A DNA stretch of 64,000 nt, from assembly GCA_964202905.1 (NCBI GenBank), contig CAXNJO010000001.1:672001-736000 (forward strand), written 5' to 3'. The notes under the pieces were generated by a model. It had not been told where the DNA came from. It was given only the letters and a program-made list of their open reading frames with translations, and made no database searches. Below, in pieces: positions 12,901 to 44,472 of this stretch. Positions within the stretch are counted from its first letter, which is position 1; each line of letters opens with the position of its first letter. Both the position numbers and the translations under genes were made by a program. Source of the stretch: Polyangiales bacterium. GTDB taxonomy: Bacteria > Myxococcota_A > Polyangia > Polyangiales > JADJQN01.

Positions 12901-14522
12901 TGTGGAGCTACTTCAACGTCGTCGAGGCGTACACCGAGGACCCGGAGCTCGAGAGCCCCGAGCGCAACCTCGACGGGCTCGTCGAGGCCGACCGTGCGGG
13001 ACGGACGCTGCTTCCGACCTACCGCGGCGGCGACAGCTGTGACGTCGACACCGACTGTCCGTACTCCCCCGGTCGCCTCTCGACCGCCGCGCCCTTCGCG
13101 CAGAAGTGCATCAAGAACCCGCGATACGCGCCCGTCCCCGAGCGCTGCGAGGGTGACCGGAACTGCCTGTGCTCCACGTTCGACGAGGATTTCAAGGACT
13201 ACGTCGTCTCCGGCACGCCGGCGCTCTACCCGGTGAAGTACCTCTTCTGCACCGACGACCGCACCAACGACATCTCGTGGTGCAACCGCTTTGACGCCGG
13301 CGAGTCTTTCCAGGAGTCGGTCGACAACTACCGCCGCACCTGGGAGGAGTCCTACCCCCGCGCTTACTACCGCAATTACCGCGCGGGCGGTGCCCGCGGT
13401 CGTGCGACATACGGCGCCATCCAGGACGCGGCGAAGATCTACCAGCACCTGTTCTTCCGCTACTTCTTCGAGCCGGAGTTCCGCTCGCAGAGCGGCCCGC
13501 TCGGGCTCGACGACCAGTACACCGCGTCGATCGACACGATGAACTGGCTCGCGGAGATCATCTCGCTGCCCGACGTCGGCGCCTACGAGCTCGACACGGC
13601 CGCGAACATTTACCGGCGCGTCAGCGAGAACCCGGACGCGCCGGGAGCCGATTTCGGCCTGCGCCCCGGCACCGGTTACCACATGTGGTCGGCCTACCAG
13701 ACTGGTCAGAACGGCTTCTTCCGCATGGAGCGGGCGGGCACGTTCAACGACAAGCTCTTCGCGATGTACGCCCTCGCGCTGCGTGACTGGAACCTCTCCT
13801 TCACGGTGGACGAGCGCTACTTCATCAACTTCTATGACCTGTTCCCGCTCGAGATGACTGAGTTCTTCGGCGCGTACATCCAGGACGACACCCGCGGTTA
13901 TGCGCCGCGTGTCCGGATGTCTTCGGCGGGTCCGGTCGTCCAGCACCTGAACTGGTGGCGTGGCAATTCGAACTGCGGGCCCTCGGGCGTCGAGCCATGC
14001 CGTGGCACGATCGACACCGTCTATCCGGAGCCGGCGCTTGATGGCACGAGCACGGAGCTTCTGCGCGACTGGGCGGCGATCCTCTCGCTCGCGCAGTTCC
14101 CGGTGTTCTACGACACGTCCTTCGAGCAGCGGCTCATGGTCTACAAGATCGGTTCGGGCGACGGCGCGGACATCCCCGCCACGCGCCCGGACGGAACCCC
14201 GACCTGTGGGTTCGGTGAGCCCGGTTGCACGCAGCCGGACTACATCGAGTACGAGTCGGATCGTCTCCACACCACGTACGTCGCGGTCGTCATCCGGCCC
14301 CGCTACGACTACAACCTGCCCGAGGAGGAGCTCGGACTCCGCCTGCTCGCCCGCATCCGCGGTCTGCAGGACGAGGCGCGCGCCCTCGAGGCGCTCCCGT
14401 CGCCGACCGCGGCGGAGCTCGCGCGGTCGCGTGCGCTGCGCACCCAGCTGGCGCAGGAGGACTCGTTCCTCGAGTACCTGATCGACGTTCAGCGCTCGTA
14501 CGGCATCAGCTCGTACCTCTGA
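9986..14522 (+). CDS. Large Cys-rich lipoprotein zinc-dependent metalloprotease, paralog 2 (one +1 frameshift at ~10466, probably a sequencing error)
   Basis: Lipobox SLFG-C. ORFs 9986-10528 and 10491-14522 join if one C at 10465/10466 is removed, giving DYNPVTGEETNVIVEN (paralog 1: QYNTTTGEELNVIEEN). HEMGHSVGLRH near 12579 and SIMDY. Confidence 0.85.
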
Positions 14523-25404: not shown

Positions 25405-26471
25405 GGGGCGCTCCGCGGGCGGCGTGGGCCCTCTTGCGTCTGCGCGGCCCAGCAGAAGGTGCGCAGGTGCGGGTTCTCGGCGCTCACCTCGATCGCGACG
25501 TCGCCGCGCGTGCCGGGCTGCGTGGCCGTCGTGACCTCCATGCGCTTCCAGCCGTCGAGATCGCGGTGCGTCATGCGCCCCGCGACGCGCCCATCGACCT
25601 TCACGACGACGTCGATCGGGCCGTGTTCGCCCATGCGCTCGTGCTCCGAATACGGGCCTCCGTAGAGGACGAGGCGCGTGCCGAGCGGCACGTCGCGGAA
25701 CGTCGCGCGGATGGGCTCGCGGCCCTGCGGGTGCTGATACACGCAGTGACGCGCTTCGAGCGCGAGGTCCTCCTGCACGGTCGCCGCGACCCAGAGCCAC
25801 GGCCGCCGCGGATCGCAGACGAAGCGCTCCGCCGGCGTCGCCGCGCCGCCGCCGAGCCCACCCGCCTGCACGACACCGCCACGCCAGGGGCAGGGCAGCG
25901 CGGCCTCGCTCTCGACGCGCTCGACCACGGCCTCGCGGACGTGGGCGACGAGGTCGTGTCGCACGGGGGAGGCGCCGAGATCCCAGCGCAGCACGCGGAC
26001 CCGCCCGAAAACCCTTTGAAAATCGGGCTCTCTCGCGGGTGCTCCGCGCGGGCGCTCGCCGCGGATCGAGAGCGCCCACAGCCGCGTGAAGGCGTCCGTG
26101 TCGCTGTGCCCCGCCTGCGCGAGCGTGATGCGGTCGCCGAGCACGAGGCGCAGCAGCGGATCCGTCCATGCGGGCGCCGACACCACGAGATCACCCGGCT
26201 GCTCCGCGCGCCGCACGAAGTCGGCCGCGGCGCGCCAGTCCTCGAGCGGCGGGACGCGTGACACCGTGAGCGTGAGCGAGGTGAGCTCGACGGCCGCGAG
26301 CAGCGGCAGGAGCAGCCAATAGTGTTTGAGCCGCGCGCGCCACACGCCCGCGCGCGAGGCCTCTTCCGGCGTGACGGGCCGCGAGCGTGGCGGCGTGTCC
26401 GGTCCGGGGGCGCGCGCAGCGGTGGGCGCCGTGCTCGGCGATGCGCCCGGGGTCGTCGGGTCGGTGGTCAC
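25401..26471 (-). CDS. Membrane-anchored periplasmic/extracellular protein of unknown function, translationally coupled to the GT-C gene
   Basis: One TM (HYWLLLPLLAAVELTSL), DWRAAADFVR…PGDLVV, and a Cys-containing beta-sandwich-like C-terminus. Its TGA overlaps the ATG of the next gene. Start is approximate. Confidence 0.65.
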   Translation of the reverse strand: MTTDPTTPGASPSTAPTAARAPGPDTPPRSRPVTPEEASRAGVWRARLKHYWLLLPLLAAVELTSLTLTVSRVPPLEDWRAAADFVRRAEQPGDLVVSAPAWTDPLLRLVLGDRITLAQAGHSDTDAFTRLWALSIRGERPRGAPAREPDFQRVFGRVRVLRWDLGASPVRHDLVAHVREAVVERVESEAALPCPWRGGVVQAGGLGGGAATPAERFVCDPRRPWLWVAATVQEDLALEARHCVYQHPQGREPIRATFRDVPLGTRLVLYGGPYSEHERMGEHGPIDVVVKVDGRVAGRMTHRDLDGWKRMEVTTATQPGTRGDVAIEVSAENPHLRTFCWAAQTQEGPRRPRSAP

Positions 26472-26556
26472 GCGGACGGGCGATGGTAGAGGCGCGCTCC
26501 GCGCTGTCAAACGCGCGGCGCGGCTCTCTTGCCGCGCGCGACGGCGGGCGGCTACG

Positions 26557-27891
26557 ATGGCCGAGATGCACTTTCTTTCGTCGCTACGCCGGGATCCGTC
26601 CGCTTGCCTCGCGCGCTCGCTGCTGGCCGGGTCGCTGCTCGCCGGTTCCTTCGGGCTCGGGGCCTGCGGCGACGACGACACGCGCCCCCCGGCGCCGCCC
26701 CCACGCGACATGGACATCACGTTCGACGCCGGTGACGGGGGCATGCTGGACGGGGACGTCGGCGACGCGGGCGGCGGCGACGGCGGCACGGTGGCGGACG
26801 GCGGCACGGGCGCCTGCCGCGTCGAGGGCGACATCCTCACGCTCGCGACGGATGTCGTCGATCGGAGCGTGCGCGCCCCGGACGTCGCGGTGAGCGGCTC
26901 GACCTTCGCGATCGTGTGGACCGACGCGCGCAGCGGCGTCGCGGACGCGTTCGTGTACGCGTGGCCGGCCGCGGCCGCGTCGGGCACCGAGGTGCGCCTG
27001 ACCGACGACTTCTCGCCGACGCGCGACGTGCGCATCGCAGGACGCACGGATGGCTTCGCGGTGGGCTGGATCGACAACAGCCTCGGCTCGTTCGAGTTGC
27101 TCGCGCGGTCGCTCAGCGCGGAGGGCGCGATCGACGACCCGATCCAGCGGATCACCAACAACATGCAGCGCGAGGACTCGCCCTCGCTCGCGCAGCTCGC
27201 CGATGGCTCGGCGATGGTGGCCTGGCTCGAGTCCGACGGACTCGGCAGCCCGGCGACGTCGCGTGCGGTGCCGCTCGACGTCGTGGCCCGCGCGGTCGGG
27301 ACCCCGGCCATGCCCGTCGTGCCCCCGAGCCTGCCTGCGGATCCGCGGCTCGGGCGCCTCGGAGACGGTGCGGCGCTCGGCTGGACGGAAGCCGGCACCG
27401 TGTACGTCCAGCCGCTCACGCCGACGGGCGCGGCCCGCGGTGCGGCGACGACGATCAACACCGAGGGGAACGCGAGCACCTCGCCGTCGCTCGCGCTCGG
27501 CGACACGGGCGGCGGTGTCGCGTTCGGCGTGCTCGTCGCGGGCGCGCGCCAGGAGATCCGCATGCGCACGGTCGACGCGTCGGGGGTGCCCGATGGCCCG
27601 GAGGCCATCCTCACGCCGCCGCCGAGTCGCGGCACCGACCCCAAGATCGCCACGTTCGCCACCGGCTACGCCGTCGCGTACCGCACCAACGAGGGCAGCG
27701 GCAGCATCCGCCTCGCGTTCGCGACCGCCCTCGGTGAGTTGTCGAGCACCCTCGAGGTGGCCACCACGGCGTCGTCGCTCGGGAGCGGGCCCGGGCTCGC
27801 GGTCGCCCCGGACGGCCGCATGGTGCTCGCCTGGCTCGAGACCGACACCGTGACCGCGACCGTGCGCGCGGCGAAGGTGGTCTGCGAATGA
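26557..27891 (+). CDS. Lipoprotein with a D/G-rich linker and a probable beta-propeller
   Basis: Lipobox GLGA-C-GDDD and about 7 repeats of P.(L/V)A….(F/Y).(V/I)(A/V)W/Y, typical of propeller blades. Confidence 0.7.
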   Translation: MAEMHFLSSLRRDPSACLARSLLAGSLLAGSFGLGACGDDDTRPPAPPPRDMDITFDAGDGGMLDGDVGDAGGGDGGTVADGGTGACRVEGDILTLATDVVDRSVRAPDVAVSGSTFAIVWTDARSGVADAFVYAWPAAAASGTEVRLTDDFSPTRDVRIAGRTDGFAVGWIDNSLGSFELLARSLSAEGAIDDPIQRITNNMQREDSPSLAQLADGSAMVAWLESDGLGSPATSRAVPLDVVARAVGTPAMPVVPPSLPADPRLGRLGDGAALGWTEAGTVYVQPLTPTGAARGAATTINTEGNASTSPSLALGDTGGGVAFGVLVAGARQEIRMRTVDASGVPDGPEAILTPPPSRGTDPKIATFATGYAVAYRTNEGSGSIRLAFATALGELSSTLEVATTASSLGSGPGLAVAPDGRMVLAWLETDTVTATVRAAKVVCE

Positions 27892-29045
27892 CGCCGAATC
27901 GAGGCGCACTCTTGCGCGTCGCGTCGCTCGTCGTGGTCGCTCTTCTCGTCGGGGCGTGCGGCGACGACGGGCGACCGCCGACCCCACCGCCGGTGGATTT
28001 CGGCCTCGACGCATCGCGTGACGCCGGCGCATCCGACGCCGCGTCGTCCGACGGCGACGTTCCGCTGCCCGACGGCGAGCTCCTCGACGCCGCCCCACCG
28101 CCTGACGGCGAGGCGCCCGCGGACGCCGCCCCGCTGCTCGACGGCGAGGTACCCCCCGACGGCGAGGTGCCCCCCGACGCCGACGCGATCTTCGACGCGG
28201 GCGCGGAGTCCGATGGCGAGGTGCCTTTCGACGCCGATCTGTTGACCGACTTCGGCCCGCCCGGCTTGCCCGAGGGAGGGCCCCCGAGCACGTGCTTCGA
28301 CGACGGTGGCGTGTTCGACTCGTGTCGCTGCGAGCGGTTCGGTCCGGCGTGCGGCGCCTCGTCCGATCCGTCTTGCGCCGGCGGAGAGGCGTGTGTCGAC
28401 ACGGGTTGCGGCTTCGCGACCTGCCTGCCGACCGGCAGCACCTGCGTGGGCGACGCCGACTGCACGCCCGGCGCGACGTGCGTGGCGGGCAGCGGCGGGC
28501 TCGGCCGCTGCGCGCCGAGCACGCCGGATTGCGTCGACTCCCGGGATTGCCCGCTCGGCTACGCCTGCGAGCTCTCGCCCTCCGGCCGCTCTTGCGTGAA
28601 TCGCCGCATCCGCTGTGGTCCCGTGCAGCCTTGTCCGAACGGCTTCGAGTGCAGGCCCGCCGAAGGCATGGTCTTCGTCTGCGCCCCGGTGCACCGGCGG
28701 TGCAGCGACCCCGGCGCGTGTCCGGCCCGTCGCTGCCTCGACGTCGATCTCGACGGGCGAACGGAGTGCACCCACACCGGCGAATGTGTCAGCAACCTCT
28801 TGTGCGCCGACGACCTCGTGTGTGGCTTCGACCCGGACCGCGTCGCCATGGTCTGCGGACGGTTCGGTCCGTGTGAGCGCGAGTCGGACTGCGTCGCGGG
28901 CTTCACGTGCCTCGACGTCTGGGGCGATGGAATCAAGCAGTGCGAGCCCGAGGGCGGCTCCTGCGCGGCCGGTACCTGCCCCGCCCGGCAGGTCTGCGGG
29001 AGCCTCCTCTCGGGGGGGCCCCCACAGTGCCTCTCGTTTCTGTGA
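27888..29045 (+). CDS. Cys-rich lipoprotein (Pro/Asp linker plus C..D.DC..G..C repeats)
   Basis: Lipobox LVGA-C-GDDG, PDGE repeats and a Cys-dense C-terminal half. ATGA overlap with the upstream gene. Confidence 0.75.
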   Translation: MTPNRGALLRVASLVVVALLVGACGDDGRPPTPPPVDFGLDASRDAGASDAASSDGDVPLPDGELLDAAPPPDGEAPADAAPLLDGEVPPDGEVPPDADAIFDAGAESDGEVPFDADLLTDFGPPGLPEGGPPSTCFDDGGVFDSCRCERFGPACGASSDPSCAGGEACVDTGCGFATCLPTGSTCVGDADCTPGATCVAGSGGLGRCAPSTPDCVDSRDCPLGYACELSPSGRSCVNRRIRCGPVQPCPNGFECRPAEGMVFVCAPVHRRCSDPGACPARRCLDVDLDGRTECTHTGECVSNLLCADDLVCGFDPDRVAMVCGRFGPCERESDCVAGFTCLDVWGDGIKQCEPEGGSCAAGTCPARQVCGSLLSGGPPQCLSFL

Positions 29046-29176: not shown

Positions 29177-32100
29177 ATGCGCACACGCTGGCTCATCCTG
29201 CTCACGCTCACGGCGACCGCACTGACCGCGTGTTCCGAAGAGGACACCCCGGGTGCGGCGTCGTCGGCGCTCGACGGTGGCGTGATCCCGCCCTGCACGG
29301 ACGGCGACGGCGACGGCTTCGGCCTCGGCTGCGCGGCGGGTCTCGACTGCGACGACGCCGACCCGTCGAGCACCAACGAGTGTCGCAATTGTGCCTCACC
29401 CGAGACGGGCTGCGCGTGCGACGGCAGCGTCCTCGAGGAGACCTGCTACCTCGACCCGGTCGACGTCGGCGGGCGCTCGATGTGCCACTCGGGCACCCGC
29501 TTCTGCCGCGACGGAGCGTGGACCTCGTGCCTCCAGCTCGAGCGCTACGAGCTCTCGGGCAACCTGGCCGGCGCGGCCAGCGCCGCGCTCGTCACGGGCC
29601 CCGTCCCCTGCAACCCCTGCAACCCGTCCTGCTACTCGACGACGGATACCCCCGGTCCGTCCGACGTGACCACCGGCGGCACCGGCGTCGTCTACACCGC
29701 CACCCCCGGCGGTGTGACGCTCCCGATGGGCGGAACCACGACCGGCACGCTGCCCGACGCGGACGGCGATGGCGTCCCCGACCTCTACGACTCGGCCCCA
29801 ACGAACCCGGCGATCACCGGCTTCGAGGGCGGCTTCTTCCACGTGCTGCCCTACGGCGGCGCCGCGGTCGATCCCCTCTACCTCATGGTGCGCGTCCGGA
29901 CGGCGGACGTGTACTTCCTCATGGACACCACCGGGTCCATGGGGGGTGAGATCGACAACCTCAAGGCGACGCTCAACACCACGATCATCCCGTCGATCCG
30001 CACGACGATCCCGGATGCGTGGTTCGGCGTCGGTCGCCACGACGACTACCCTGTCAACGGTTACGGCGCGGAGTACTACTGCGACCCTTGGGGTTGCGCC
30101 TACATCGGCGACACGGTCTATCAGAACCTGGCCAACATCACCGACACGGCGACGGGGGGCGGCGCGACGACGGTCACCAACGCGGTGAACGCGCTCTACA
30201 CGCGCTGGGGCAACGACCTGCCGGAGTCGCAGATCCCCGCGCTCTACGCGATCGCGACGGGCTCGGCGCTCGGCCCTTATCTCCCGGGTTCGACGTGCGC
30301 GGGCAGCCGCTTCGGCTACCCGTGTTTTCGCCCCGGCACCGTGCCGATCATCATCCTCTTCACGGACGCGCCCTTCCACAACGGCCCGCCCGTCACAGGA
30401 ACGGCGACGACGGGCTTCGCCACCGGCACCGCGACGAACGGCGCCGCGCTCGAGATGGGCACCGCCACGCCCGACCCGCGGGTGAACGGGACCGCCAGCG
30501 CCTCGGCCAGCGTCACGGGCACCGCTTCGCTCGACCCGCGCGAGCCTGGCACGGCCACGCCGGCCCCGCGCACGAGCGGCACGGCCACCGCCTCGCGTGA
30601 GACCGGCACCGCGACGAACTACGCGCGCACGACGGGCACCGCGACGAACCAGGTGCCGCTCACGGGCACGCCGACGGCCTTCCCGGGCACCGCGGGCACG
30701 GCGACGGCGTCGGTCACGACGGGCACCGCGACCAACTACCCGCGCATCAGCGGTCTCGCGACGGCCGAGCCGGTCGTCAACGGCACCGCGACGCTGTACG
30801 CGCGGACGACGGGCACCGCGGACAACGCGCGCGTGACGGGCACGGCGACGCAGTATGTGCGGACGACGGGCACCGCGACGAACCAGGTGCCGCTCACGGG
30901 CACGCCGACGGCCTTCCCGGGCACCGCGGGCACGGCGACGGCGTCGGTCACGACGGGCACCGCGACCAACTACCCGCGCATCAGCGGTCTCGCGACGACC
31001 GAGCCGGTCGTCAACGGCACGGCGACGCAGTACGCGCGGACGACGGGCACGGCGGACAACGCGCGCGTGACGGGCACGGCGACGCAGTATGTGCGGACGA
31101 CGGGCACCGCGACGAACCAGGTGCCGCTCACGGGCACGCCGACGGCCTTCCCGGGCACCGCGGGCACGGCGACGGCGTCCGTCACGACGGGCACCGCGAC
31201 CAACTACCCGCGCATCAGCGGTCTCGCGACCGCCGAGCCGATCGTGACGGGCACGGCGACGCAGTACGCGCGGACGACGGGCACCGCGGACAGCCCGCGC
31301 GTGACGGGCACGGCGACGCAGTACGTGAGGACGACCAGCCTCGCCTCCAACCAGCCCGTCGTCACCGGCACGCCCAGCCCGTACCCTGCCACGCTCGGCA
31401 CCGCGTCGAACTCCGTCACCACCGGCACGGCGGTCGCGTCGCCGCGCATCACGGGCATCGCCAGCAACGAGCCCCGCGTGACGGGCACGCCCACGGCCTA
31501 CCCGCGCACCTTCGGGACGGCGACGAACTCGATCCACACGGGCACGGCCTCCGCCTACCCGCGTACGACGAGCACGGCCTCGAACTACCGCGAGACGGGC
31601 ACGGCGACGGCCTATCCGCTCACGACGAGCACGGCGTCGAATCTGGTTCCCGTCGTCACCGGTACGGCGACCCTGGCCGTGGTCACCGGGACGGCGACCG
31701 CTCGATCCACTTTCGTCCGGAACGGGCTGAACGACACGTCGCCGGACTGGGCGTGGACTACCAACCAGTTCGTCGGTGACGTCATTCAGGTGTTTGCGGG
31801 TACGGGCAGGGGCGAGAACCGGGTCATCTCGTCGCACGCCGACAGGTCGTTCACGATGTCGAGCAACTGGCGGAACCGTCCAACGACGGGCAGCTTTTAT
31901 CGCGTCGTTCCGAAGGCGGCTGACGACAATCTCTACGACCTCGCCAAGGTTTGGACGACCAATCAGTTCGTCGGGTACACGGTCACGATCACGAGCGGCA
32001 CGGGCATCGGGCAGACGCGTCTGATCACGGCGAACAACGTGAAGAGCCTCACGGTCTCGCCTGCGTGGACGACGACGCCGAGCACGACCAGCGGCTATGC

Positions 32101-35100
32101 GATCTATCCGAACAACACGCTCAACGACACGACTCCAAGCTGGTCCGGCACCATCACCGGCGCGCGCGTGCGTATCCGGAGTGGCACGGGTGCCGGGCAG
32201 GAGAGCACGGTCACGGCCAACACGGCGACCCAGCTCACCGTGTCGCCGGCATGGACGACCCCACCGAACGCGACGAGCGTCTACGAGGTGATCGCGGCCT
32301 CGGAGCTTAACAAACTCTACGACACCACCAAGACGTGGGCGGTCAACCAGTTCACGACGTTCACCTATGTCGTGCGGATCACCGGTGGTCGCGGTTCGGG
32401 GCAGTCGGCCACGGTGACCGCCAACTCCGCCAACGTCCTGACCGTCTCGCCCGCGTGGCCGATCCTCCCGGATACGACCAGCACCTACGAGATCGCCGAG
32501 GCGCTCTTCAACGACAAGCTCTATGACCTGACTCCGAGCTGGACGGGCAGCGTCGGCGGCGCGCGCGTGCGCATCCTGAGCGGCACCGGGGCGGGCCAGG
32601 AGCGCAACATCACGGCAAGCGCTGCGACTCGCCTCACCGTCTCGCTCGCTTGGACGACCCTCCCGGACGCGACGAGCGTCTACGAGGTGATCGCGGCGGC
32701 CGATCTCAACAAGCTCTACGACACGACGCGCAGCTGGACGCTCAATCAGTTCATGGGCTTCACCGTCACCATCACCGGCGGTCGTGGTGCCGGCCAATTC
32801 GCCGCCGTCTCCTCGAACACGGCGACCGTGCTCACGGTCGCGGCCGCGTGGGCGACCCTGCCGGACGCGACGAGCACGTACGACATCCGCGAGGCGGCCT
32901 TCAACACGCGGCTCTACGACACGACCACGCCCGGTTGGACGGGGACCGTGACGGGCTCGACGGTGTTCATCACCTCGGGAACGGGGGCCGGCCAGAACCG
33001 CGTGATCTCGTCCAACACGCCGACGGTGTTGAACGTCACCCCCGCTTGGGTGACGCAGCCGGACGCGACGAGCAACTACGAGGTCGTCGCCGCCGCGGAC
33101 GTCGTCCGCCTCTACGACACGACGAAGAGTTGGGTGGTCAACCAGTTCATGACTGGCTATGTGGTGAACATCCTCTCGGGTGCAGGCGTGGGCCAGATCC
33201 GCGCGATCTCGAGCAACACCGCGAACGTCCTCACGGTCTCGGCGTGCGTGGGGCGACGATGCCCAACAACACGAGCACCTACGAGATCCGCGAGACGGTC
33301 AGCAACGACAAACTCTACGACACCTCGCCGAGCTGGGCGCCGGCGGACGTGCTCACGGGTCGGACGATCTTCCTGACCTCGGGCATCGGGCTCGGGCCAG
33401 TCGCGCGTCATCAGCGCGAACAACGCGAACAAGATCACCGTCTCGCCGGCGTGGGGCACGCTGCCGGATGCGACGACCGGGTACGCGATCGTCGCAGCGG
33501 CCGACCTCGCCAAGATGTACGTGCCCGTGCGTCCGTGGACGCCGGGCCAGTTCGTCGGCTTCACGCTCACCCTCACGGGCGGACCCGGCGCGGGGCAGTC
33601 GCGCCCGATCACGGCCAACTCGACGACGGACGTCACCGTCATGTCGGCTTGGATGACGCTGCCCGACGCCACGACGACCTACGAGATCCGTGAGACGGTC
33701 ATCAACAACCAGCTCTACGACATGACGCCTGCGTGGGCGGGAAGCGTGAACGGCTACACGCTGTTCCTCACGGCGGGCACGGGCGCCAGCCAGACCCGGA
33801 CGGTGACGGCGACGGCGCCGACGCGGCTCACCGTGAGCAGCCCGTGGGCCACGCAGCCCGATGCGACGACGCAGTACCGCCTGGTCGCGCCGGCGGTCTT
33901 CACGACGGTCACGGACACGACCAAGTCGTGGATCATGAACGAGTTCGCGACGGCGTTCACCTTCCGCATCGTCTCCGGCACGGGCGTTGGTCAGACGAGC
34001 GTGATCACCAGCAACACGAGCAACTCGCTGACGCTCGCGACGGCGCTGACGACGCTCCCGGACGCCACGACCGTCTACGAGATCCGCGAAACCGTCATCA
34101 ACGACAAGCTCTACGACACGACGCCGAGCTGGTCGGGGAGCGTGGTGGGCTCGACGGTGTTGCTGACGGGCGGGACGGGCGCGGGCCAGCTCCGCACGAT
34201 CTCTGCGAACACGACGACGAAGCTGACGGTGTCGGCGGTTTGGACGACGAACCCGGACGCGACGACGCAGTACGAGGTCATCCCGGCTGCGGAGCTGACG
34301 AAGCTCTACGACACGTCCAAGTCGTGGGCGATGAACCAGTTCACGCCCGGGTACATCGTGAGCATCCTGACGGGCGCGGGCGCGGGCCAGACGCGCAACG
34401 TCGTGTCGAACACGAACAACGTCGTCACGGTGGATGCGCCGTGGATGACGCTGCCGAACACGACGAGCACGTACGAGATCCGCGAAGCGGTGATCAACAA
34501 CAAGCTGTACGACGCGACGGTGCCGGGCTGGGTGACGGGCCTCGCGCTGAATGGCTCGACGGTGCTCCTGACGGGCGGCAGGGGCGCGGGCCAGTCGAAT
34601 ACGATCATGGCGAACACGGCGACGAAGCTGACGCTCAACAGCGCGTGGGCGCCGGAGCCGGATGCGACGACGACGTACGAGGTCGTGGCGCCGGCGGAGT
34701 TCACGAAGCTCTACGACACGACGAAGAGTTGGGTGGTCAACCAGTTCATGACTGGCTATGTGGTGAACATCCTGACGGGCGCGGGTGCGGGCCAGACGCG
34801 CCCCATCGTGTCGAACACGAACAACGTGCTGACGGTGTCTGCGCCGTGGTCACCGCTGCCGAACGCGACGAGCACGTACGTGATCCGCGAAGCGGTCACG
34901 AACGACAAGCTCTTCGACACGACGGTGCCGAGCTGGGCGCCTGCGGCCGCGTGCTGAACGGGCTCGACGGTGTTCATCACGGCAGGGCACGGGCGCGGGC
35001 CAGTCGCAGCACGATCACGGCGAACACGGCGACGCGCCTCACGGTCAACAGCGCGTGGGGCACGCAGCCGGACGGGACGAGCCAGTACGAGATCGTCGCG

Positions 35101-38100
35101 GCGGGCGAGTTCACGAAGCTGTACGACACGACGCGTTCGTGGACGCCCGGCCAGTTCGCGGGCTTCACGGTGACGATTATTGGGGGCGCGGGCGCGGGCC
35201 AGGTTCGCCCGGTGACGGGGAACGGCGCGACGGACCTGACGGTGTCTGGGGCGTGGATGACGCTGCCGAACAGCACGAGCACGTACGAGATCCGCGAGAC
35301 GGTGATCAACGACAAGCTCTACGACACCACAGTGCCGGCGTGGTCGGGGGTCGTGAGTGGGTTGACGCTGGTGCTGACGGGCGGGACGGGCGCGGGTCAG
35401 ATCCGCACGATCTCTGCGAACACGGCGACGAAGCTGACGGTGTCGGCGGTGTGGACGACGCAGCCGGACGCGACGACGCAGTACCTGGTTTTCGCGGGCA
35501 CGGAGCTGAGCCGTCTGTACGACACGACCAAGAGCTGGGTCGTGGGCGAGTTCATGGGCTTTGAGCTGAGCATCACGGCGGGTCCGGGAGCCGGTCAGAC
35601 GCGGACGGTGTCTTCGAACACGTTGAATTCGCTCACGATCTCGGCGCCGTGGATGACACTGCCCAGCACGGCGAGCACTTATGTGCTGCGTGAGGTGGTG
35701 GTCAACAACAAGCTCTACGACACGACGGTGCCTGCGTGGTCGGGGAGCGTGATGGGCTCGACGGTGTTGCTGACGGGCGGGACGGGCGCGGGCCAGCTCC
35801 GCACGATCTCGACGAACACGGCGACGAAGCTGACGGTGTCGGCGGTGTGGACGACGAACCCGGACGCGACGACGCAGTACGAGGTCATCCCGGCGGCGGA
35901 GCTGACGAAGCTCTACGACACGACCAAGTCGTGGGCGATGAACCAGTTCACGCCCGGGTACATCGTGAGCATCCTGACGGGCGCGGGCGCGGGCCAGACG
36001 CGCAACGTCGTGTCGAACACGAACAACGTCGTCACGGTGGATGCGCCGTGGATGACGCTGCCGAACACGACGAGCACGTACGAGATCCGCGAAGCGGTGA
36101 TCAACAACAAGCTGTACGACGCGACGGTGCCGGGCTGGGTGACGGGCCTCGCGCTGAATGGCTCGACGGTGCTCCTGACGGGCGGCAGGGGCGCGGGCCA
36201 GTCGAATACGATCATGGCGAACACGGCGACGAAGCTGACGCTCAACAGCGCGTGGGCCGCCGGAGCCGGATGCGACGACGACGTACGAGGTCGTGGCGCC
36301 GGCGGAGTTCACGAAGCTCTACGACACGACGAAGAGTTGGGTGGTCAACCAGTTCATGACTGGCTATGTGGTGAACATCCTGACGGGCGCGGGTGCGGGC
36401 CAGACGCGCCCCATCGTGTCGAACACGAACAACGTGCTGACGGTGTCTGCGCCGTGGTCACCGCTGCCGAACGCGACGAGCACGTACGTGATCCGCGAAG
36501 CGGTCGTGAGCGACAAGCTGTTCGACACGACGGTGCCGGGCTGGGTAACGGGCCCCGCGTTGAACGGCTCGACGGTGTTCATCACGGCAGGGACGGGCGC
36601 GGGTCAGTCGCGCACGATCACGGCGAACACGGCGACGCGCCTCACGGTCAACAGCGCGTGGGGCACGCAGCCGGACGGGACGAGCCAGTACGAGATCGTC
36701 GCGGCGGGCGAGTTCACGAAGCTGTACGACACGACGCGTTCGTGGACGCCCGGCCAGTTCGCGGGCTTCACGGTGACGATTATTGGGGGCGCGGGCGCGG
36801 GCCAGGTTCGCCCGGTGACGGGGAACGGCGCGACGGACCTGACGGTGTCTGGGGCGTGGATGACGCTGCCGAACAGCACGAGCACGTACGAGATCCGCGA
36901 GACGGTGATCAACGACAAGCTCTACGACACCACAGTGCCGGCGTGGTCGGGGGTCGTGAGTGGGTTGACGCTGGTGCTGACGGGCGGGACGGGCGCGGGT
37001 CAGATCCGCACGATCTCTGACGAACACGGCGACGAAGCTGACGGTGTCGGCGGTGTGGACGACGCAGCCGGACGCGACGACGCAGTATGTGGTCCTCGCC
37101 AGCACCGAGCTGAGCCGTCTCTACGACACGACCAAGAGCTGGGTCGTGGGCGAGTTCATGGGCTTTGAGCTGAGCATCACGGCGGGTCCGGGAGCCGGTC
37201 AGACGCGGACGGTGTCTTCGAACACGTTGAATTCGCTCACGATCTCGGCGCCGTGGATGACACTGCCCAGCACGGCGAGCACTTATGTGCTGCGTGAGGT
37301 GGTGGTCAACAACAAGCTCTACGACACGACGGTGCCTGCGTGGTCGGGGAGCGTGATGGGCTCGACGGTGTTGCTGACGGGCGGGACGGGCGCGGGCCAG
37401 CTCCGCACGATCTCTGACGAACACGGCGACGAAGCTGACGGTGTCGGCGGTTTGGACGACGAACCCGGACGCGACGACGCAGTACGAGGTCATCCCGGCT
37501 GCGGAGCTGACGAAGCTCTACGACACGACCAAGTCGTGGGCGATGAACCAGTTCACGCCCGGGTACATCGTGAGCATCCTGACGGGCGCGGGCGCGGGCC
37601 AGACGCGCAACGTCGTGTCGAACACGAACAACGTCGTCACGGTGGATGCGCCGTGGATGACGCTGCCGAACACGACGAGCACGTACGAGATCCGCGAAGC
37701 GGTGATCAACAACAAGCTGTACGACGCGACGGTGCCGGGCTGGGTGACGGGCCTCGCGCTGAATGGCTCGACGGTGCTCCTGACGGGCGGCAGGGGCGCG
37801 GGCCAGTCGAATACGATCATGGCGAACACGGCGACGAAGCTGACGCTCAACAGCGCGTGGGCCATCGAGCCGGACGCGACGACGACGTACGAGGTCGTGG
37901 CGCCGGCGGAGTTCACGAAGCTCTACGACACGACGAAGAGTTGGGTGGTCAACCAGTTCATGACTGGCTATGTGGTGAACATCCTGACGGGCGCGGGTGC
38001 GGGCCAGACGCGCCCCATCGTGTCGAACACGAACAACGTGCTGACGGTGTCTGCGCCGTGGTCACCGCTGCCGAACGCGACGAGCACGTACGTGATCCGC

Positions 38101-41100
38101 GAAGCGGTCGTGAGCGACAAGCTGTTCGACACGACGGTGCCGGGCTGGGTAACGGGCCCCGCGTTGAACGGCTCGACGGTGTTCATCACGGCAGGGACGG
38201 GCGCGGGTCAGTCGCGCACGATCACGGCGAACACGGCGACGCGCCTCACGGTCAACAGCGCGTGGGGCACGCAGCCGGACGGGACGAGCCAGTACGAGAT
38301 CGTCGCGGCGGGCGAGTTCACGAAGCTGTACGACACGACGCGTTCGTGGACGCCCGGCCAGTTCGCGGGCTTCACGGTGACGATTATTGGGGGCGCGGGC
38401 GCGGGCCAGGTTCGCCCGGTGACGGGGAACGGCGCGACGGACCTGACGGTGTCTGGGGCGTGGATGACGCTGCCGAACAGCACGAGCACGTACGAGATCC
38501 GCGAGACGGTGATCAACGACAAGCTCTACGACACCACAGTGCCGGCGTGGTCGGGGGTCGTGAGTGGGTTGACGCTGGTGCTGACGGGCGGGACGGGCGC
38601 GGGTCAGATCCGCACGATCTCTGACGAACACGGCGACGAAGCTGACGGTGTCGGCGGTGTGGACGACGCAGCCGGACGCGACGACGCAGTACCTGGTCCT
38701 CGCCAGCACCGAGCTGAGCCGTCTCTACGACACGACCAAGAGCTGGGTCGTGGGCGAGTTCATGGGCTTTGAGCTGAGCATCACGGCGGGTCCGGGAGCC
38801 GGTCAGACGCGGACGGTGTCTTCGAACACGTTGAATTCGCTCACGATCTCGGCGCCGTGGATGACACTGCCCAGCACGGCGAGCACTTATGTGCTGCGTG
38901 AGGTGGTGGTCAACAACAAGCTCTACGACACGACGGTGCCTGCGTGGTCGGGGAGCGTGGCGGGTTCGACGGTGTTGCTGACGGGCGGGACGGGCGCGGG
39001 CCAGCTCCGCACGATCTCTGACGAACACGGCGACGAAGCTGACGGTGTCGGCGGTGTGGACGACGAACCCGGACGCGACGACGCAGTACGAGGTCATCCC
39101 GGCTGCGGAGCTGACGAAGCTCTACGACACGACCAAGTCGTGGGCGATGAACCAGTTCACGCCCGGGTACATCGTGAGCATCCTGACGGGCGCGGGCGCG
39201 GGCCAGACGCGCAACGTCGTGTCGAACACGAACAACGTCGTCACGGTGGATGCGCCGTGGATGACGCTGCCGAACACGACGAGCACGTACGAGATCCGCG
39301 AAGCGGTGATCAACAACAAGCTGTACGACGCGACGGTGCCGGGCTGGGTGACGGGCCTCGCGCTGAATGGCTCGACGGTGCTCCTGACGGGCGGCAGGGG
39401 CGCGGGCCAGTCGAATACGATCATGGCGAACACGGCGACGAAGCTGACGCTCAACAGCGCGTGGGCCATCGAGCCGGACGCGACGACGACGTACGAGGTC
39501 GTGGCGCCGGCGGAGTTCACGAAGCTCTACGACACGACGAAGAGTTGGGTGGTCAACCAGTTCATGACTGGCTATGTGGTGAACATCCTGACGGGCGCGG
39601 GTGCGGGCCAGACGCGCCCCATCGTGTCGAACACGAACAACGTGCTGACGGTGTCTGCGCCGTGGTCACCGCTGCCGAACGCGACGAGCACGTACGAGAT
39701 CCGCGAGACCGTCGTGAGCGACAAGCTCTACGACACGACAGCGCCGAGCTGGGTAATGGGCACCGCGTCGTACGGCTCGACCGTGTTCATCACCGCGGGG
39801 ACGGGCGCGGGGCAGTCGCGCGTCGATCACGGCGAACACCGCGACCCGCCTGACGCTCGCCTCGAGCTGGGTGACGCTGCCCGACGCGACGAGCCAGTAC
39901 CGGATCGCCGGGGCCGCCGATGTGCTGCGCCTCCTCGATGCGGGCGCGGGATGGACGGTGGATCGGTTCGTCGGATACACGGTCGAGATCCTCTCCGGCG
40001 CGGGCGCGGGTCAGACGCGCGTGATCAGCTCGAACACCGTCGACGTCCTCACGGTCACCACCGCCTGGACGACGCTGCCGGACGCGACGAGCAACTACCA
40101 GATCCGCGAGACCAACCTCGCCGACAAGCTCTTCGACACGACGAAGAGCTGGACGACGAACGTCTACGCGGGCACGACGGTCACCATCACGGGCGGGACG
40201 GGCGTCGGCCAGGTCCGCACGGTGGTGAGCAACACGAACAACCGCCTCACCGTCACGCCCGCGTGGGCCACGCTGCCCGGCGCGACGACCACGTACCGGG
40301 TCGGGACTGGCGCCGTCGGCGAGCTCAACAAGCTCTACGACTTCACGCAGGCGTGGGTCCCCGGGAGCCTCGTGGGCTTCACGGTCCGGATCACCGGCGG
40401 TCTCGGCTCGGGTCAGACCCGCACGATCTCCGCCAACGACGCGACCAGCGTCACCGTCTCGGTGAACTGGGTCACCGTGCCGAACACGACGAGCACGTAT
40501 GAGATCACGGGTCTCAACAACGTGCTCTACGACCTCGACCTCCCGACGCCCTGGGCGACCAACCAGTTCGCCGGTTACAAACTCTTCATCAGCTCGGGGC
40601 GCGGCGCGGGTCAGACGCGCACGGTCTCCGGCAACGCCGCGCGCACCCTCACCGTCTCGGCGGCGTGGGCGACGATCCCCGACACCACGAGCGTCTACCA
40701 GCTCTCGAACGAGGACTACTACACCCCGTACTTCGCGGGTGGCCACGTGCCTCCGACCTACACGCAGACCGTGGCCGCGCTGAACGCGCGCGGCATCAAG
40801 GTCATCGTCGTCGATTCGAGCGGCGGCTACGCCCCCGCGCTCCGAGACGCGCGGGAGATCGCCACGGCGACCGGCGCCCTCGGGCCGACGGGCGCGCCGC
40901 TCGTCTACAGCATCAGCCCCTCCGGAACGGGTCTCGGGACGGCGGTCGCGAGCGCGGTCGCCGACCTCGCGAGCTACTCGCGTCTGGACATCACCGCGCG
41001 CGCCAACGACAACCCGGCGACGCCGTTCGACGAGCGCACGCTCGTGGCGTCGATCCTCGCGGTGGCGGGCTCGTACGCGCCCGGTCGCTGCACGGGGATC

Positions 41101-41649
41101 ACCGGCGGCGTGCAGTTCAACCAGTGCCTGCCGGGCACCGGCGTGACCTTCCAGGTCAACTTCACGGGCGTCGTCATGCCGACCAGCGTGCCGCAGCGCT
41201 TCGATTTCACGATCGACACGCTCGGCAACGGCAGCCAGATCATATCGACGACGCCCGTCACGATCATCATCCCGCCGACCTCGCCCGCGTATCCGCCCAG
41301 CGGCACGTACACGCGCGACTTCGACGCCACGATGCGCTGCGCCGGCACGGAGGTTCCGCGCTGGGGCAACCTGTCGTGGACGGCGACGCTCCCCACGGGC
41401 ACCAGCATCTCCTGGACGCTGCGCTCGGCGACGACGACGGCGGCCCTCGCCGCGGCGACGCCGGTGACCTTCTCGACGCCGACCTTGAGCAGCCCGCAGA
41501 ACGCCGGCAGCCAGCTGATCGCCGGCGGGGTTCCCGCGACCCTGCCCCACATGCGCGTGACCGCGACGCTGAACTCCAACGCGGCGCGCAGCGCGGCGCC
41601 GACCCTCTCGAGCTTCAACCTGCTCTACGACTGCGTGGCGGGCGAGTAG
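29177..41649 (+). CDS. Giant VWA-domain lipoprotein adhesin (~4,150 aa) with a 45-strand + 45-module repeat insertion; split into several ORFs by single-base insertions
   Basis: Lipobox LTA-C-SEED, CTDGDGDGFG…DCDD and DADGDGVPD Ca/metal-binding motifs, MIDAS-like YFLMDTTGSM, and ILFTDAPFH. Repeat arrays span 30392-40710. The VWA resumes at PPTYTQTVAALNARGIKVIVV, followed by C-terminal beta domains. Frame changes at ~33245, ~33390, ~34950-35010, ~36258, 37013, 37410, 38617, 39014 and 39825. Confidence 0.85.
30625..31335 (+). repeat. Three near-identical tandem 234-bp (78-aa) units, each made of 8 TGTAT-type strands
   Basis: RTTGTATNQVPLTGTPTAFPGTAGTATASVTTGTATNYPRISGLATAEPVVNGTAT.YARTTGTADNARVTGTATQYV occurs three times. 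The antisense ORFs 30736-30969 and 30970-31203 confirm the 234-bp period. Confidence 0.95.
34100..39720 (+). repeat. About 3.5 near-identical tandem ~1602-bp (534-aa) units, each made of 8 ~66-aa modules
   Basis: The marker AAGAGTTGGGTGGTCAACCAG occurs at 34724, 36332, 37936 and 39540 (spacing 1608/1604/1604, i.e. 1602 plus extra bases). Confidence 0.93.
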
Positions 41650-41665: not shown

Positions 41666-43042
41666 ATGAGCGAGACCGCCACGTACACCGCGCGGCCCCG
41701 GGCGCCCGGACCCTCCGGGCGCTACGGGCTGCGCAACGTCGCGCGGTTCGTGCGCGACCCGCTCTCGTTCCTGCGCGGGCTCTCGACGCGGTACGGCGAC
41801 GTCGTGCAGCTGAAGCTGCTCGGCAAGCCGTACTTCGTGCTCAGCCACCCGGACGACATCGAGGCGGTCCTCGTGCAGCACGCGCGCTCGATGGGGCGCG
41901 ACGAGTACGTCGAGGTGCTCAAGAACGCGCTCGGGCTCGGACTGCTCACGAGCGACGGCGAGCTCTGGAAGCGGCAGCGCAAGCTGATGTCGCAGGCCTT
42001 CGCGCCGCGCCGCATCGCGGCGTACGCCGACGCGATGGCGCGCGTCACGGACGCGGGGCTCACGCGCTGGCGGGATGGCGCGGTCGTGAACCTCCACGCG
42101 GAGATGTCGCGGCTCACGATGGAGGTCGTCGCCGAGGTGCTCTTCGGCGCGGGACTTCGGGCCGACGACGTCGCGCTCGTCGGGCACGCGATGGAGGAGG
42201 TCAACGCCTTCTTCGCGAACAGCCCCGAGGCGCTGTTGAAGATCCCCACGCGCGTGCCGACGCCGCGCAACCGCCGCTTCGTGAAGGCCGTCGCGGCGCT
42301 CGACACGCTGCTCTTCCGCATCCTCGCCGAGCGCCGCGCCGGGCCCGCGCGCGACGACCTGCTCGGCACGCTGCTCGCCGCGCAGGACGACGACGGCGCG
42401 CGCATGAGCGATCAGCAGCTGCGCGACGAGGCGATCACGCTCTTTCTCGCGGGGCACGAGACGACGGCGCTCGCGCTCGCGCACACGCTCTACCTCCTCG
42501 CGCGGCACCCCGAGATCGAGAAGAAACTCCACGCCGAGCTGCGCGCGGTGCTCGGCGATCGCCTGCCGACGGCCGCGGACGTGCGCGCGCTGCCCTACAC
42601 GGAGTGCGTGCTCAAGGAGGCGATGCGCCTCTATCCGCCCGCGTGGACGACGGGGCGCGAGGTGCTCGAGCCGATCGAGGTGCGCGGCGTGTCCATGCCG
42701 AAGGGCGCGCAGATCTTCTTGAGTCAGTGGGTCGTACACCACGATGCGCGATGGTTTCCGGATCCGGAGCGCTTCGACCCCGAGCGCTTCACACCCGAGC
42801 GCGCGAAGGCGCTGCCGCGCTACGCGTACTTCCCCTTCGGCGGCGGGCCGCGCATCTGCATCGGCAATCATTTCGCGATGATGGAGGCGACGCTGATGCT
42901 CGCGCTCATCGTCGGGCGCTGGCAGCTCGCGCTCGAGCCCGGACAGAAGCTCGAGCTCGCGCCTTCGGTGACGCTGCGGCAGCGCGGGCCGGGCCTGCGC
43001 GTGCGGCTGCGTTCGCGTCCGCGTGAGAGCGTGTCGGCATGA
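41666..43042 (+). CDS. Cytochrome P450
   Basis: AGHETT I-helix, EAMR (ExxR), PERF and FGGGPRICIG heme-Cys. Confidence 0.96.
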   Translation: MSETATYTARPRAPGPSGRYGLRNVARFVRDPLSFLRGLSTRYGDVVQLKLLGKPYFVLSHPDDIEAVLVQHARSMGRDEYVEVLKNALGLGLLTSDGELWKRQRKLMSQAFAPRRIAAYADAMARVTDAGLTRWRDGAVVNLHAEMSRLTMEVVAEVLFGAGLRADDVALVGHAMEEVNAFFANSPEALLKIPTRVPTPRNRRFVKAVAALDTLLFRILAERRAGPARDDLLGTLLAAQDDDGARMSDQQLRDEAITLFLAGHETTALALAHTLYLLARHPEIEKKLHAELRAVLGDRLPTAADVRALPYTECVLKEAMRLYPPAWTTGREVLEPIEVRGVSMPKGAQIFLSQWVVHHDARWFPDPERFDPERFTPERAKALPRYAYFPFGGGPRICIGNHFAMMEATLMLALIVGRWQLALEPGQKLELAPSVTLRQRGPGLRVRLRSRPRESVSA

Positions 43043-44472
43043 CCCGCGCCGCGAGCCCCGCGGCCGTCGAGCGTGCCTTGATCGAGATGGACGCTGCGTT
43101 GCCGAGCGGCGCGGTGCTGCGCGACGCCGACGTGCTCGCCGCGTACGCGCACGACGAGAGCGAGACGACGCCGTGCACGCCGGACGCCGTCGTGCGTGCG
43201 GGGAGCACGGCGGAGGTCGCGGCGGTGCTGCGCGCCGCGCACGCGCACGGCGTCCCCGTCACGCCGCGTGCGGGCGGCACGGGCCGTGTCGGCGGCGCGG
43301 TGCCGGTCGCGGGCGGGATCGTGCTCAGCGTCGAGCGCATGCGCGACGTGAAGGGCGTCGAGCGCGACGAGCTGCTCGCGGTCGCGGGGCCGGGCGTGGT
43401 GTTGCAGACGCTCCACGAGACGGTCGAGCGCGAGGGGCTCTTCTATCCGCCGGACCCCTCGTCGCTCGCCTCGTGTCGGCTCGGCGGCAACGTCGCGGCC
43501 AACGCGGGCGGGCCGCGCGCCTTCAAATACGGCACGACGCGCGACTTCGTGCTCGGCCTGGAGGCCGTCACCGCGGACGGCACCGTGCTCCAGCTCGGGC
43601 GCCGCACGCGCAAGGGCGTGACGGGCTACGACCTCACCGGGCTCGTCGTCGGCAGCGAGGGCACGCTCGCCGTTGTCACCGAGGTCACGCTGCGTCTCGT
43701 GCCGCTGCCCGAGCGTGTCGCGACGCTGCTCGTGCTCCTGCGCGACGTGCACGCCGCCGCGCGCGCGGTGAGCGCGATCGTGGCGCGGCGCGTGGTTCCG
43801 CGCTGCCTCGAGCTGCTCGACGCGGCGACGCTCGAGATCCTGCGCCCGGCGACCTCGCTGCCGCTCGATCCGCGCGCGGGGGCGCTGCTCCTCGTCGAGC
43901 TCGACGGCGGCGACGCGACGCTCGACGCCGAGCTCGCCACGATCTCGGCCGCGCTCGACGATCTTGGCGTGCTCGACGTGCTCGTCGCGAAGAGCGAGGC
44001 CGACCGCGCGCGGCTCTGGGCAGCGCGCCGCGACCTCAGCTACGCGACGCGCCGCATGGCCCGCTTCAAGCTCAGCGAGGACATCGTCGTGCCGCGCACG
44101 CGGCTGCCCGCGCTGCTCGAGGCCGTCGCGCAGATCGCCGAGCGCGAGCGGCTGCGCATGCCGGCCTATGGCCACGCGGGCGACGGCAACCTGCACGTCG
44201 CGCTGCTCTGGGACGCGCCCGAGGATCGGCCGCGCGTCGACCGCGCGATCGAGTCGCTGTTCCGCGCGACGGTCGCGCTCGGCGGCACGCTGAGCGGCGA
44301 GCACGGGATCGGCGTGCTGAAGGCGCCGTACCTCGGCCTCGAGCAGAGCGACGCGCTCATCGCGTTGCAGGAGCGGGTGAAGGCGACCTTCGACCCGCGC
44401 GGGATCCTCAACCCGGGCAAGGTCTTCCCCGCGCAGGCGGCGCGCTTCCCGCACACGCACGGCGGCTGCTGA
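43039..44472 (+). CDS. FAD-linked oxidase (GlcD / D-lactate dehydrogenase family)
   Basis: PDPSS, GGNVAANAGG..AFKYG, GYDLT..VGSEGTL, GHAGDGNLH, SGEHGIG and DPRGILNPGK. Confidence 0.92.
   Translation: MTRAASPAAVERALIEMDAALPSGAVLRDADVLAAYAHDESETTPCTPDAVVRAGSTAEVAAVLRAAHAHGVPVTPRAGGTGRVGGAVPVAGGIVLSVERMRDVKGVERDELLAVAGPGVVLQTLHETVEREGLFYPPDPSSLASCRLGGNVAANAGGPRAFKYGTTRDFVLGLEAVTADGTVLQLGRRTRKGVTGYDLTGLVVGSEGTLAVVTEVTLRLVPLPERVATLLVLLRDVHAAARAVSAIVARRVVPRCLELLDAATLEILRPATSLPLDPRAGALLLVELDGGDATLDAELATISAALDDLGVLDVLVAKSEADRARLWAARRDLSYATRRMARFKLSEDIVVPRTRLPALLEAVAQIAERERLRMPAYGHAGDGNLHVALLWDAPEDRPRVDRAIESLFRATVALGGTLSGEHGIGVLKAPYLGLEQSDALIALQERVKATFDPRGILNPGKVFPAQAARFPHTHGGC

Follow-up and report, generated by a model that had tools for sequence, protein, structure and literature searches.

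CglD of Myxococcus xanthus is a surface lipoprotein of 1,130 amino acids. It has a calcium-binding region with DxDxDG motifs and, at its C-terminus, a VWA domain of the integrin beta-I-like type with a MIDAS (bioRxiv 10.1101/2023.10.19.562135; accessible text). Si3 of the cyanobacterial RNA polymerase is a cytoplasmic arm of 150 Å, with eight SBHM domains nested at six levels, and six levels is also the extreme case highlighted in the accessible text on a survey of 2.7 million domains (PMC10895346, PMC13114784). In streptococcal antigen I/II (A3-P1), a helix is wound with a polyproline helix and a globular head sits at the tip (PMC9789152; accessible text).

We analysed a stretch of 64,000 nucleotides (the window, to which all positions refer) from a lake myxobacterium. 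It encodes a giant surface-type lipoprotein with a split integrin-like domain. The first-pass annotation had compared this protein to CglD, and the comparison is apt: judging from the accessible text on CglD, both are in the same beta-integrin-like class, and they share the lipoprotein form, the DxDxDG region (for the giant protein, TSP_3 is below the cut-off), and the beta-I VWA (bioRxiv 10.1101/2023.10.19.562135). However, the word "insertion" is absent from that text, while the giant protein has 3,435 amino acids within its VWA. By class and motifs, a CglD-like assignment is partly supported.

We consider it likely that the insert consists of 45 barrels nested in one another, which would form an out-and-back stalk with the VWA at its base. 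As in Si3, this would be an elongated arm in a functional loop that is made by recursive domain-in-domain insertion, but with 45 inferred levels, another fold, and variable depth. As in antigen I/II, the stalk would be formed from two unlike repeat arrays that run out and back, but here folded domains would be completed across the arrays, and the VWA would be at the base. (Both comparisons are with the accessible parts of those papers.) The openly accessible main texts on nested or matryoshka adhesin stalks and on giant myxobacterial VWA adhesins do not describe this architecture.

The host protein and its split VWA domain

The gene and the parts of the protein that surround the insert are:

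29177..41649, + strand: giant gene, about 4,150 amino acids if translated across its nine frame breaks
29177..29233, + strand: signal peptide and lipobox end (LTAC, Cys19), read by eye from the sequence
29234..29833, + strand: Cys-rich N-terminal region with DxDxDG (calcium-binding-like) motifs, from the sequence; TSP_3 E = 0.022, below the cut-off
29834..29905, + strand: N-terminal strand of a presumed hybrid (beta-sandwich) domain, from conservation in paralogues; matches to integrin beta-1 begin here
29906..30391, + strand: N-terminal half of the VWA (integrin beta-I-like), from profile and paralogue matches; motifs DTTGS (29924-29938), GNDLPE (30209-30226), and TD (30362-30367)
40708..40965, + strand: C-terminal half of the VWA (helix, strand, helix, strand, last helix), from paralogue alignment
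40966..41271, + strand: C-terminal part of the presumed hybrid domain, from paralogue alignment
41272..41646, + strand: extra C-terminal beta-rich domain, common to the subfamily; no Pfam family above the cut-off

The earlier proposal of a VWA domain split by an insertion of roughly 3,400 amino acids holds, with the insert at 30392-40707 (about 3,435 amino acids). The motifs that it quoted are all in place on the + strand: DVYFLMDTTGSM from 29906, GNDLPESQ at 30209, FTDAPFHNGPP ending at 30391, and PPTYTQTVAALNARGIKVIVVDS from 40750. Alignment with intact paralogues from the same genome also bore out the claim that both segments form one VWA, as the halves cover adjoining, non-overlapping parts: they match residues 7-220 (43% identity) and 231-415 (37% identity) of one intact paralogue. 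By these alignments, the integrin-like VWA is one domain that is split by the insert. The break is in the loop after the TD strand, as had been suggested, with the TD motif lying 8 residues ahead of the insert. On either side of the insert, the chain is in the same domain, which supports the proposed out-and-back topology. Because the lipobox precedes the VWA (Cys19, read by eye, is about 220 residues upstream) and both flanks are in one domain, the VWA is placed near the lipid anchor, again as proposed. The flanks of the VWA are beta-rich and are conserved in paralogues, and 29834..29905 and 40966..41271 would together belong to an integrin-type hybrid domain.

A VWA half has 12 matches within the host genome. 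Searching the PDB with the sequence of the N-terminal half gave nothing useful. With a family profile, all 49 matches (E up to 1) were integrin beta chains, although these matches are weak (best E = 0.014) and are confined to profile positions 6-77; by these weak E-values, integrin beta chains are the nearest counterparts of this VWA among solved VWA proteins. In the profile search, the MIDAS DxS/TxS motif (DTTGS) is aligned to beta-3. The sequence also contains GNDLPE (NDxPE) and TD, which we take to be the later acidic ligands of a MIDAS-type VWA. Among 44 family members, Pfam reports Integrin_beta in 12 and vWA_SIBA-E in 17. From these comparisons, the VWA is classified as integrin beta I-like (PF00362-type). 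In contrast to an integrin beta subunit, which has a C-terminal transmembrane helix and a cytoplasmic tail, the giant protein ends in a soluble beta domain and has an N-terminal lipid anchor (from the lipobox), and we name no candidate alpha partner. The insert-bearing loop presumably corresponds to the loop by which an integrin beta subunit contacts its alpha partner.

No single ORF spans the gene in the contig of GCA_964202905.1, as the frame shifts at nine places (about 33250, 33390, 34950-35010, 36262, 37018, 37416, 38620, 39020, and 39823). These breaks might indicate an assembly artefact or a decaying pseudogene, and no read or contig that we checked from the public runs bridges the whole gene. 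The contigs of run X1 are themselves not free of error, since bases are missing from them at 29827 and 30154, two places with an intact frame. Nevertheless, we find this explanation very improbable: all nine changes fit extra bases; the same "ctctgacgaac" junction is found in four repeat copies; and among the contigs listed from public runs X1 to X4, the extra base is absent at four of the nine places (the extra bases near 34950-35010 are missing in runs X2 and X4, and the one at 37018 is missing in run X2). In run X1, the contig over the 8-barrel repeat block has a depth of 17.8, versus about 6 in unique parts, or about threefold. Furthermore, close relatives with giant inserts at the equal place have unbroken ORFs (P0268, 2,996 amino acids; L089, 1,140; L090, 877). 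The frame breaks are most likely assembly errors.

The outgoing arm and the returning barrels

The insert is made of 45 "GTAT" units of about ten residues followed by 45 barrels of about 66 residues:

30392..31726, + strand: outgoing arm of 45 Thr-rich GTAT units of 9-14 amino acids (444 in all), each presumed to supply one barrel with its first strand
30594..31335, + strand: 234-bp (8-unit) repeat, 3.2 copies, units 8-32 of the arm
31685..31930, + strand: turn or tip, where unit 45 directly abuts barrel 1; divergent
31727..40707, + strand: returning array of 45 barrels of 61-69 amino acids, lacking the first strand; barrel fold of phage hub/Dit proteins and EF-Tu domain II
34109..39725, + strand: about 1,604-bp (8-barrel) repeat, 3.5 copies, barrels 13-40

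As read from the sequence, the arrays are equal (45:45) and follow an A1-B1-...-B2-A2 order. Both contain three copies of the 8-unit block, with 16 units added to each. The first-pass annotation did not identify the insert's content, which we read as 45 strands and 45 incomplete nested barrels. The barrel at the tip has 8 arginines, versus 1-5 in the other 44 barrels; its net charge of +2 is unexceptional, and the arginine count alone stands out. Comparing the tip to the Atlas yielded unnamed clusters only. PF09356 (BR0599) reaches E = 5e-10 in Pfam when summed over the repeats, but no single stretch passes. Weak matches to the barrel repeat turned up in 3 of the 200 further genomes searched within the order (best E = 1e-6) and in 1 of 400 from the phylum.

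The GTAT-type strand is the first strand of the barrel. In two unrelated proteins (L034 and L035), it sits immediately before its own barrel, and the motif is carried by 151 of 276 linkers of 12-30 amino acids versus 9 of 115 linkers of 1-10. Adding the strand completes a six-stranded barrel and improves the match to solved structures: for 8gtc_P, Z = 9.2 (rmsd 3.0, 82 residues aligned) with the strand and 7.0 (rmsd 3.5, 70 aligned) without it; for 8vjh_D, 8.8 versus 5.8; and for 8rk3_g, 8.2 versus 5.9. These phage hub/Dit barrels (also 4jmq_A; PF09356) have the same six-stranded fold, but unlike the insert, they are single contiguous domains without nesting. (Spt5 KOW repeats and phage proteins, considered as relatives of a six-barrel model, were low-TM Foldseek matches only and were set aside.)

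Proposed nesting and its alternatives

We propose that the first hairpin of every barrel holds the next barrel, so that 45 first strands would run out and 45 five-stranded remainders would run back, with unit k completing barrel 46-k. When we compared the unit-similarity matrices of the two arrays, the mirror order with zero shift fit best (r = 0.554, best of 42 mappings); the best parallel mapping reached r = 0.474, so the margin is modest, and the top of 5,000 permutations was 0.24. The mirror symmetry of the near-identical blocks is inexact: units 8-32 predict barrels 14-38, and we see 13-40. An AlphaFold2 model of the homologue P0123 suggests two-level nesting: one barrel-sized match covers residues 485-631 (Z = 5.4 and rmsd 2.7 over 66 aligned residues; end points only), starting with the outer strand and finishing where the outer barrel does, as expected of a nested fold. 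In the same model, neither the host barrels nor the outer strands of its four-deep array are placed. In the turn region of the window, AlphaFold2 gave barrels with pLDDT of about 80-92 and an unplaced arm of about 30. (The alignments for these two models had just 9 and 12 rows.) When units 12-16 were modelled with barrels 30-34, ipSAE was 0.47, versus 0.00 for the best of 3 controls, with runs sharing at least 96% of contacts and a partner pLDDT of at least 74. However, among solved complexes, 18 of 157 pass at 0.60 or below, as do both of the mismatches that pass (2 of 215), so this support is weak. Of 9 other arrays that are complete, 5 gave equal automatic counts of arm units and domains, and the remaining 4 differed by one. 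These arrays were chosen by eye among the top matches and four are from one family; the P0151/P0235/P0201/P0186 family was excluded because its units are uncountable. Mirror pairing probably extends along the entire stalk.

Alternatively, the loop might run out and back, but with barrels that fold independently in a normal tandem string and an arm that serves as a Thr-rich tether (flexible or glycosylated) or forms its own beta-solenoid. The arm's composition (28% Thr) and its low pLDDT are consistent with this, as is the confident modelling of the barrels without it. But a tether does not account for the exact 45:45 count, the 16 units added in both arrays, or a motif identical to the first strand of contiguous barrels; along with the near-equal counts in other hosts and the weak complex pass, these make it an unlikely reading.

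A different idea, which builds on the force-sensing hinge of the first-pass annotation and is compatible with the nested fold, is that the stalk is a lever and that pulling on it would strain the loop beside the MIDAS acid and switch the affinity of the VWA, as in integrins. The MIDAS-type residues are kept and the insert is just 8 residues past the TD motif, and the accessible text on CglD reports traction and mechanosensory roles (bioRxiv 10.1101/2023.10.19.562135). However, the loop is variable and 10 other family ORFs hold inserts in different loops, so these loops look like tolerant attachment sites. Also, integrin allostery works via the last helix and the hybrid domain, not via the insert-bearing loop. 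We regard this putative hinge as doubtful.

Returning to the nested stalk, the host would be a lipoprotein of the outer membrane, in the beta-integrin-like (CglD-like) family of myxobacteria, with its VWA head near the cell surface and the stalk emerging from the loop after the MIDAS TD strand. Two linkers would tie neighbouring barrels into a two-stranded rod that ends in the divergent, Arg-rich barrel. At about ten residues per unit, the rod would be roughly 110-150 nm long. The most likely job of the stalk would be to cross the surface layer and touch prey, neighbours, or the substratum; the VWA would meanwhile bind a ligand or partner at the base. Its length could be tuned by adding equal numbers of units to both arrays (16 each here).

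The same loop across the family

Throughout the family, the insert-bearing loop is a hot spot for insertions. Its length is 14-18 amino acids in 29 of 46 ORFs of intact relatives that come from other genomes (17 were unparsed by the pattern). Of 46 family ORFs, 8 have a loop of 15-18 amino acids, 5 have one of 30, and 15 have one that holds a single PPC domain; another 10 have inserts in other loops. In close relatives, with hosts that are 61-75% identical, this loop is filled by an unrelated insert, made of PPC domains that number 1, 3, or 15. In these, a Pro-rich arm lies ahead of the domains and lengthens with their number (about 10-15, 40, or 236 amino acids, respectively), which adds to the case for nesting. 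Neither the hot spot nor this second, unrelated nested repeat was in the first-pass annotation. We found no second VWA with a barrel insert among the family members searched, which is weak evidence because repeats assemble poorly.

A broader scheme combines tension on the 45-level nested stalk controlling the metal site with a stalk that is an exchangeable cassette: unrelated folds (the phage-type barrel and the PPC sandwich) would obey the same first-strand nesting rule, sister lineages would have swapped them, and paired duplications, in arrays that are kilobases apart, would lengthen the stalk. We put this forward as a speculative possibility.

Nested insertion is already known, with six levels as the highlighted extreme in the accessible text. 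If our reading is true, a natural case with 45 levels would make recursion a general route to long, doubly tethered protein rods, and a possible design template for extendable protein spacers. Such proteins escape both domain annotation (Pfam finds 0 families in the first 1,420 amino acids) and short-read assembly. The family provides a natural length series in one loop, from 15 to about 3,450 amino acids and with two unrelated repeat folds. Its small members (1, 3, or 4 levels; among them L089 with 3 PPC domains, P0148 with 3 barrels, and P0123 with arrays of 4 and 2) make it possible to test in what order the levels fold, how strong they are mechanically, how paired repeats expand, and whether the stalk is coupled to the integrin-type metal site.

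A VWA domain divided by a giant insert

The gene starts at 29177 on the + strand, with what by eye are a signal peptide and a lipobox, and stops at 41649. The assembly shows no single ORF for it: there are nine frame changes, and reading through them with X at the junctions gives a protein of about 4,150 amino acids. We take the nine frame breaks as probable assembly errors. Extra bases are consistent with every break, and one break junction is repeated in four repeat copies. The DNA is present in lake or freshwater sequencing runs from two studies, and in contigs from public runs the extra base is absent at 4 of the 9 break sites among the matches listed (repeat contigs may derive from another copy). 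Contigs from one such run (X1) have deletions of their own where the frame of the gene is intact. In one contig, depth was 17.8 across the large repeat versus about 6 in unique parts, which fits three copies of this repeat. The genome is 5.68 Mb, with about 73% GC.

The first-pass annotation proposed that a single VWA domain is split by an insert. Its motifs were all found in place on the + strand, and the proposal is borne out: the two halves correspond to residues 7-220 (43%) and 231-415 (37%) of an intact paralogue (L003), with no overlap. The insert is about 3,435 amino acids (30392-40707). The same genome has 12 matches to the N-terminal half of the VWA domain and 11 to the C-terminal part, with several pairs adjacent in one ORF. 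Among 46 ORFs related to the paralogue, whose record titles name Polyangiales, Sandaracinaceae or Myxococcota, the corresponding loop has 14-18 amino acids in 29 (the other 17 were unparsed).

When a profile of 44 intact members was compared to the PDB, all 49 matches were integrin beta chains (best E = 0.014). The Pfam assignments among these members were vWA_SIBA-E (17), VWA_4 (15), and Integrin_beta (12), and in the Atlas a member from the same genus falls among Myxococcota VWA clusters. The gliding protein CglD, which a preprint describes as a beta-integrin-like surface lipoprotein (bioRxiv 10.1101/2023.10.19.562135), is of the same class. The genome encodes about a dozen family members, and three beta-integrin-like lipoprotein genes lie in tandem at G000:C3:516447-522554.

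Immediately upstream of the gene and on the same strand are two lipoprotein-like ORFs (26326-29045, +) with no Pfam matches, the second of them Cys-rich; these are possible partners. A cytochrome P450 and an FAD-linked oxidase lie close behind the gene (41666-44472, +), and a P450 is also downstream of a close relative (L088). Elsewhere in the window are two large adjoining proteins (1,500 and 1,343 amino acids; 5472-14522, +), whose sole match is a short Met-zincin (DUF4953), and an M16 peptidase pair (36-2608).

Two arrays and a missing first strand

Because both flanks of the insert lie in one domain, the chain must return. The insert consists of two arrays:

30392-31726, + strand: arm of 45 GTAT units, 444 amino acids
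31727-40707, + strand: array of 45 domains, 61-69 amino acids each

Within the arm, units 8-32 make up a 234-bp repeat (3.2 copies); the domain array has a longer one, of about 1,604 bp (3.5 copies), over domains 13-40. The period is eight units in both cases, which means that each array grew by 16. When the similarity matrices of the units and domains were compared, the best fit paired unit k with domain 46-k (r = 0.554, versus 0.474 for the best parallel mapping and a permutation maximum of 0.24). The edges of the repeat blocks miss the mirror position by one unit toward the tip and by two to three units toward the base. Both arrays could grow in a single step through a double crossover in which the larger core of a sister copy takes the place of the inner core. 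In the amplified barrel block (34109-39725), 73-76% of four-fold sites are G, compared with 43-59% elsewhere in the gene; this explains the flip in GC skew of the block.

AlphaFold2 modeled the domains in the form of small barrels (pLDDT about 80-92), with the arm left unplaced. The barrels resemble those of phage hub, Dit, and EF-Tu domain II types, and each is without its own first strand. In unrelated proteins, a GTAT-like strand directly precedes the same domain; across the fetched proteins, a GTAT-like motif is present in 151 of 276 long linkers versus 9 of 115 short ones. Against the same solved chains, barrels with the strand scored Z = 9.2, 8.8, and 8.2, versus 7.0, 5.8, and 5.9 without it. 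In the model of a homologue (P0123), the innermost strand is incorporated in its own barrel. A structural match to this model spans residues 485-631 (end points only; 66 aligned, rmsd 2.7), an extent that would fit completion of the outer barrel by the outer strand. When units 12-16 were modeled together with barrels 30-34, the complex had a score of 0.47, versus 0.00 for the best control, with contact agreement of at least 96% and partner pLDDT of at least 74 (individual contacts not listed). Passing scores of 0.60 or less came from 18 of 157 solved complexes and also from both passing mismatches of 215, so the support from this score is weak.

Arrays of barrels with a preceding arm also interrupt unrelated proteins. 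In a lipoprotein family from Gemmatimonadota, the insert has 9, 4, 3, or 2 levels, or the site is empty; further interrupted hosts are P0137 and P0146. In nine complete arrays, PPC arrays (described below) included, automatic counts of arm units and domains were equal in five and off by one in four; these arrays were chosen by eye, and four of them share a family. The P0127 sequence is truncated, and members of the P0151 family were omitted as uncountable. Recursion through the first hairpin would be the simplest fold that meets all of the counts, and we consider it quite probable that the insert is nested, with unit k completing barrel 46-k.

Other arrangements of the barrel were also seen. 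In P0134, P0135, P0140, P0184, and P0125, the barrels come first and are followed by a run of "P..GT.Y.I" strands (by eye), so that the barrel appears nested by its last strand. In a large family of proteins with several barrels (P0004-P0120; 860-1,190 amino acids), one barrel is seemingly inserted in another's middle hairpin, and multiheme cytochrome-like proteins (L034, L035; CxxCH by eye) have two barrels as inserts.

Other inserts in the same loop

We compared 46 family ORFs, which came from the window, P0268, three metagenome loci, and 40 fetched regions (picked mostly because they scored high or were long). The loop after the TD strand has 15-18 amino acids in 8 of them, 30 in 5, and 65 in 1; it holds one domain of the unrelated PPC type in 15; and it reaches 290, 329, 457, 2,299, and 3,455 amino acids in one ORF each. 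Two ORFs are truncated, and 10 have short loops with inserts elsewhere. To judge from these sequences, the loop is an insertion hot spot. In L161, one PPC domain lies inside another in this loop, and in L166 two are in tandem. The inserts in other VWA loops (L129, L130, L131, L134, L136, L138, L139, L142, L146, and L148) are runs of PPC domains, Cys-rich segments, and what we take, by eye, to be a PA14-like domain.

The closest relatives of the window's protein are P0268 and L088 (host 72-75% identical) and L089 and L090 (61-69%). The five proteins form a supported clade (98/98) in a midpoint-rooted tree from which ten rows bearing other inserts were excluded. P0268, L088, L089, and L090 have 15, at least 13, 3, and 1 PPC domains (PF04151), respectively, and Pro-rich arms precede these (236 amino acids in P0268, 40 in L089, and about 10-15 in L090). 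The arms are built of LPxT-like units, the motif that opens single-PPC inserts. The barrel insert has its start some ten residues further N-terminal in the loop (by eye). By parsimony, we infer that it took the place of a PPC insert or went into a loop that had been emptied.

A proposed stalk, its possible tip, and known designs

With about 10 residues per unit and 3.3 Å per extended residue, the rod would be at most about 150 nm long. In the window's array, no domain has as many Arg residues as the innermost one (8, versus 1-5 in the others), and the innermost domain also ranks first in P0268 (12) and L088 (14), which hints that it may be a contact tip. The first-pass annotation had raised the idea that the VWA may be an integrin-like force-sensing hinge. 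We think this improbable, as the loop tolerates many different inserts, which argues for a passive site of attachment. We favor a reach-extending adhesin, with less certainty than we attach to the nested architecture.

Cyanobacterial Si3, with eight domains and six levels, is a known case of recursive insertion (PMC10895346, PMC13114784), and antigen I/II has a stalk with an out-and-back course (PMC9789152). In the literature searched, no account of nested stalks turned up for beta-integrin-like lipoproteins. We conclude that the observation is real, and we see in it a new and extreme form of a design that is known but uncommon.
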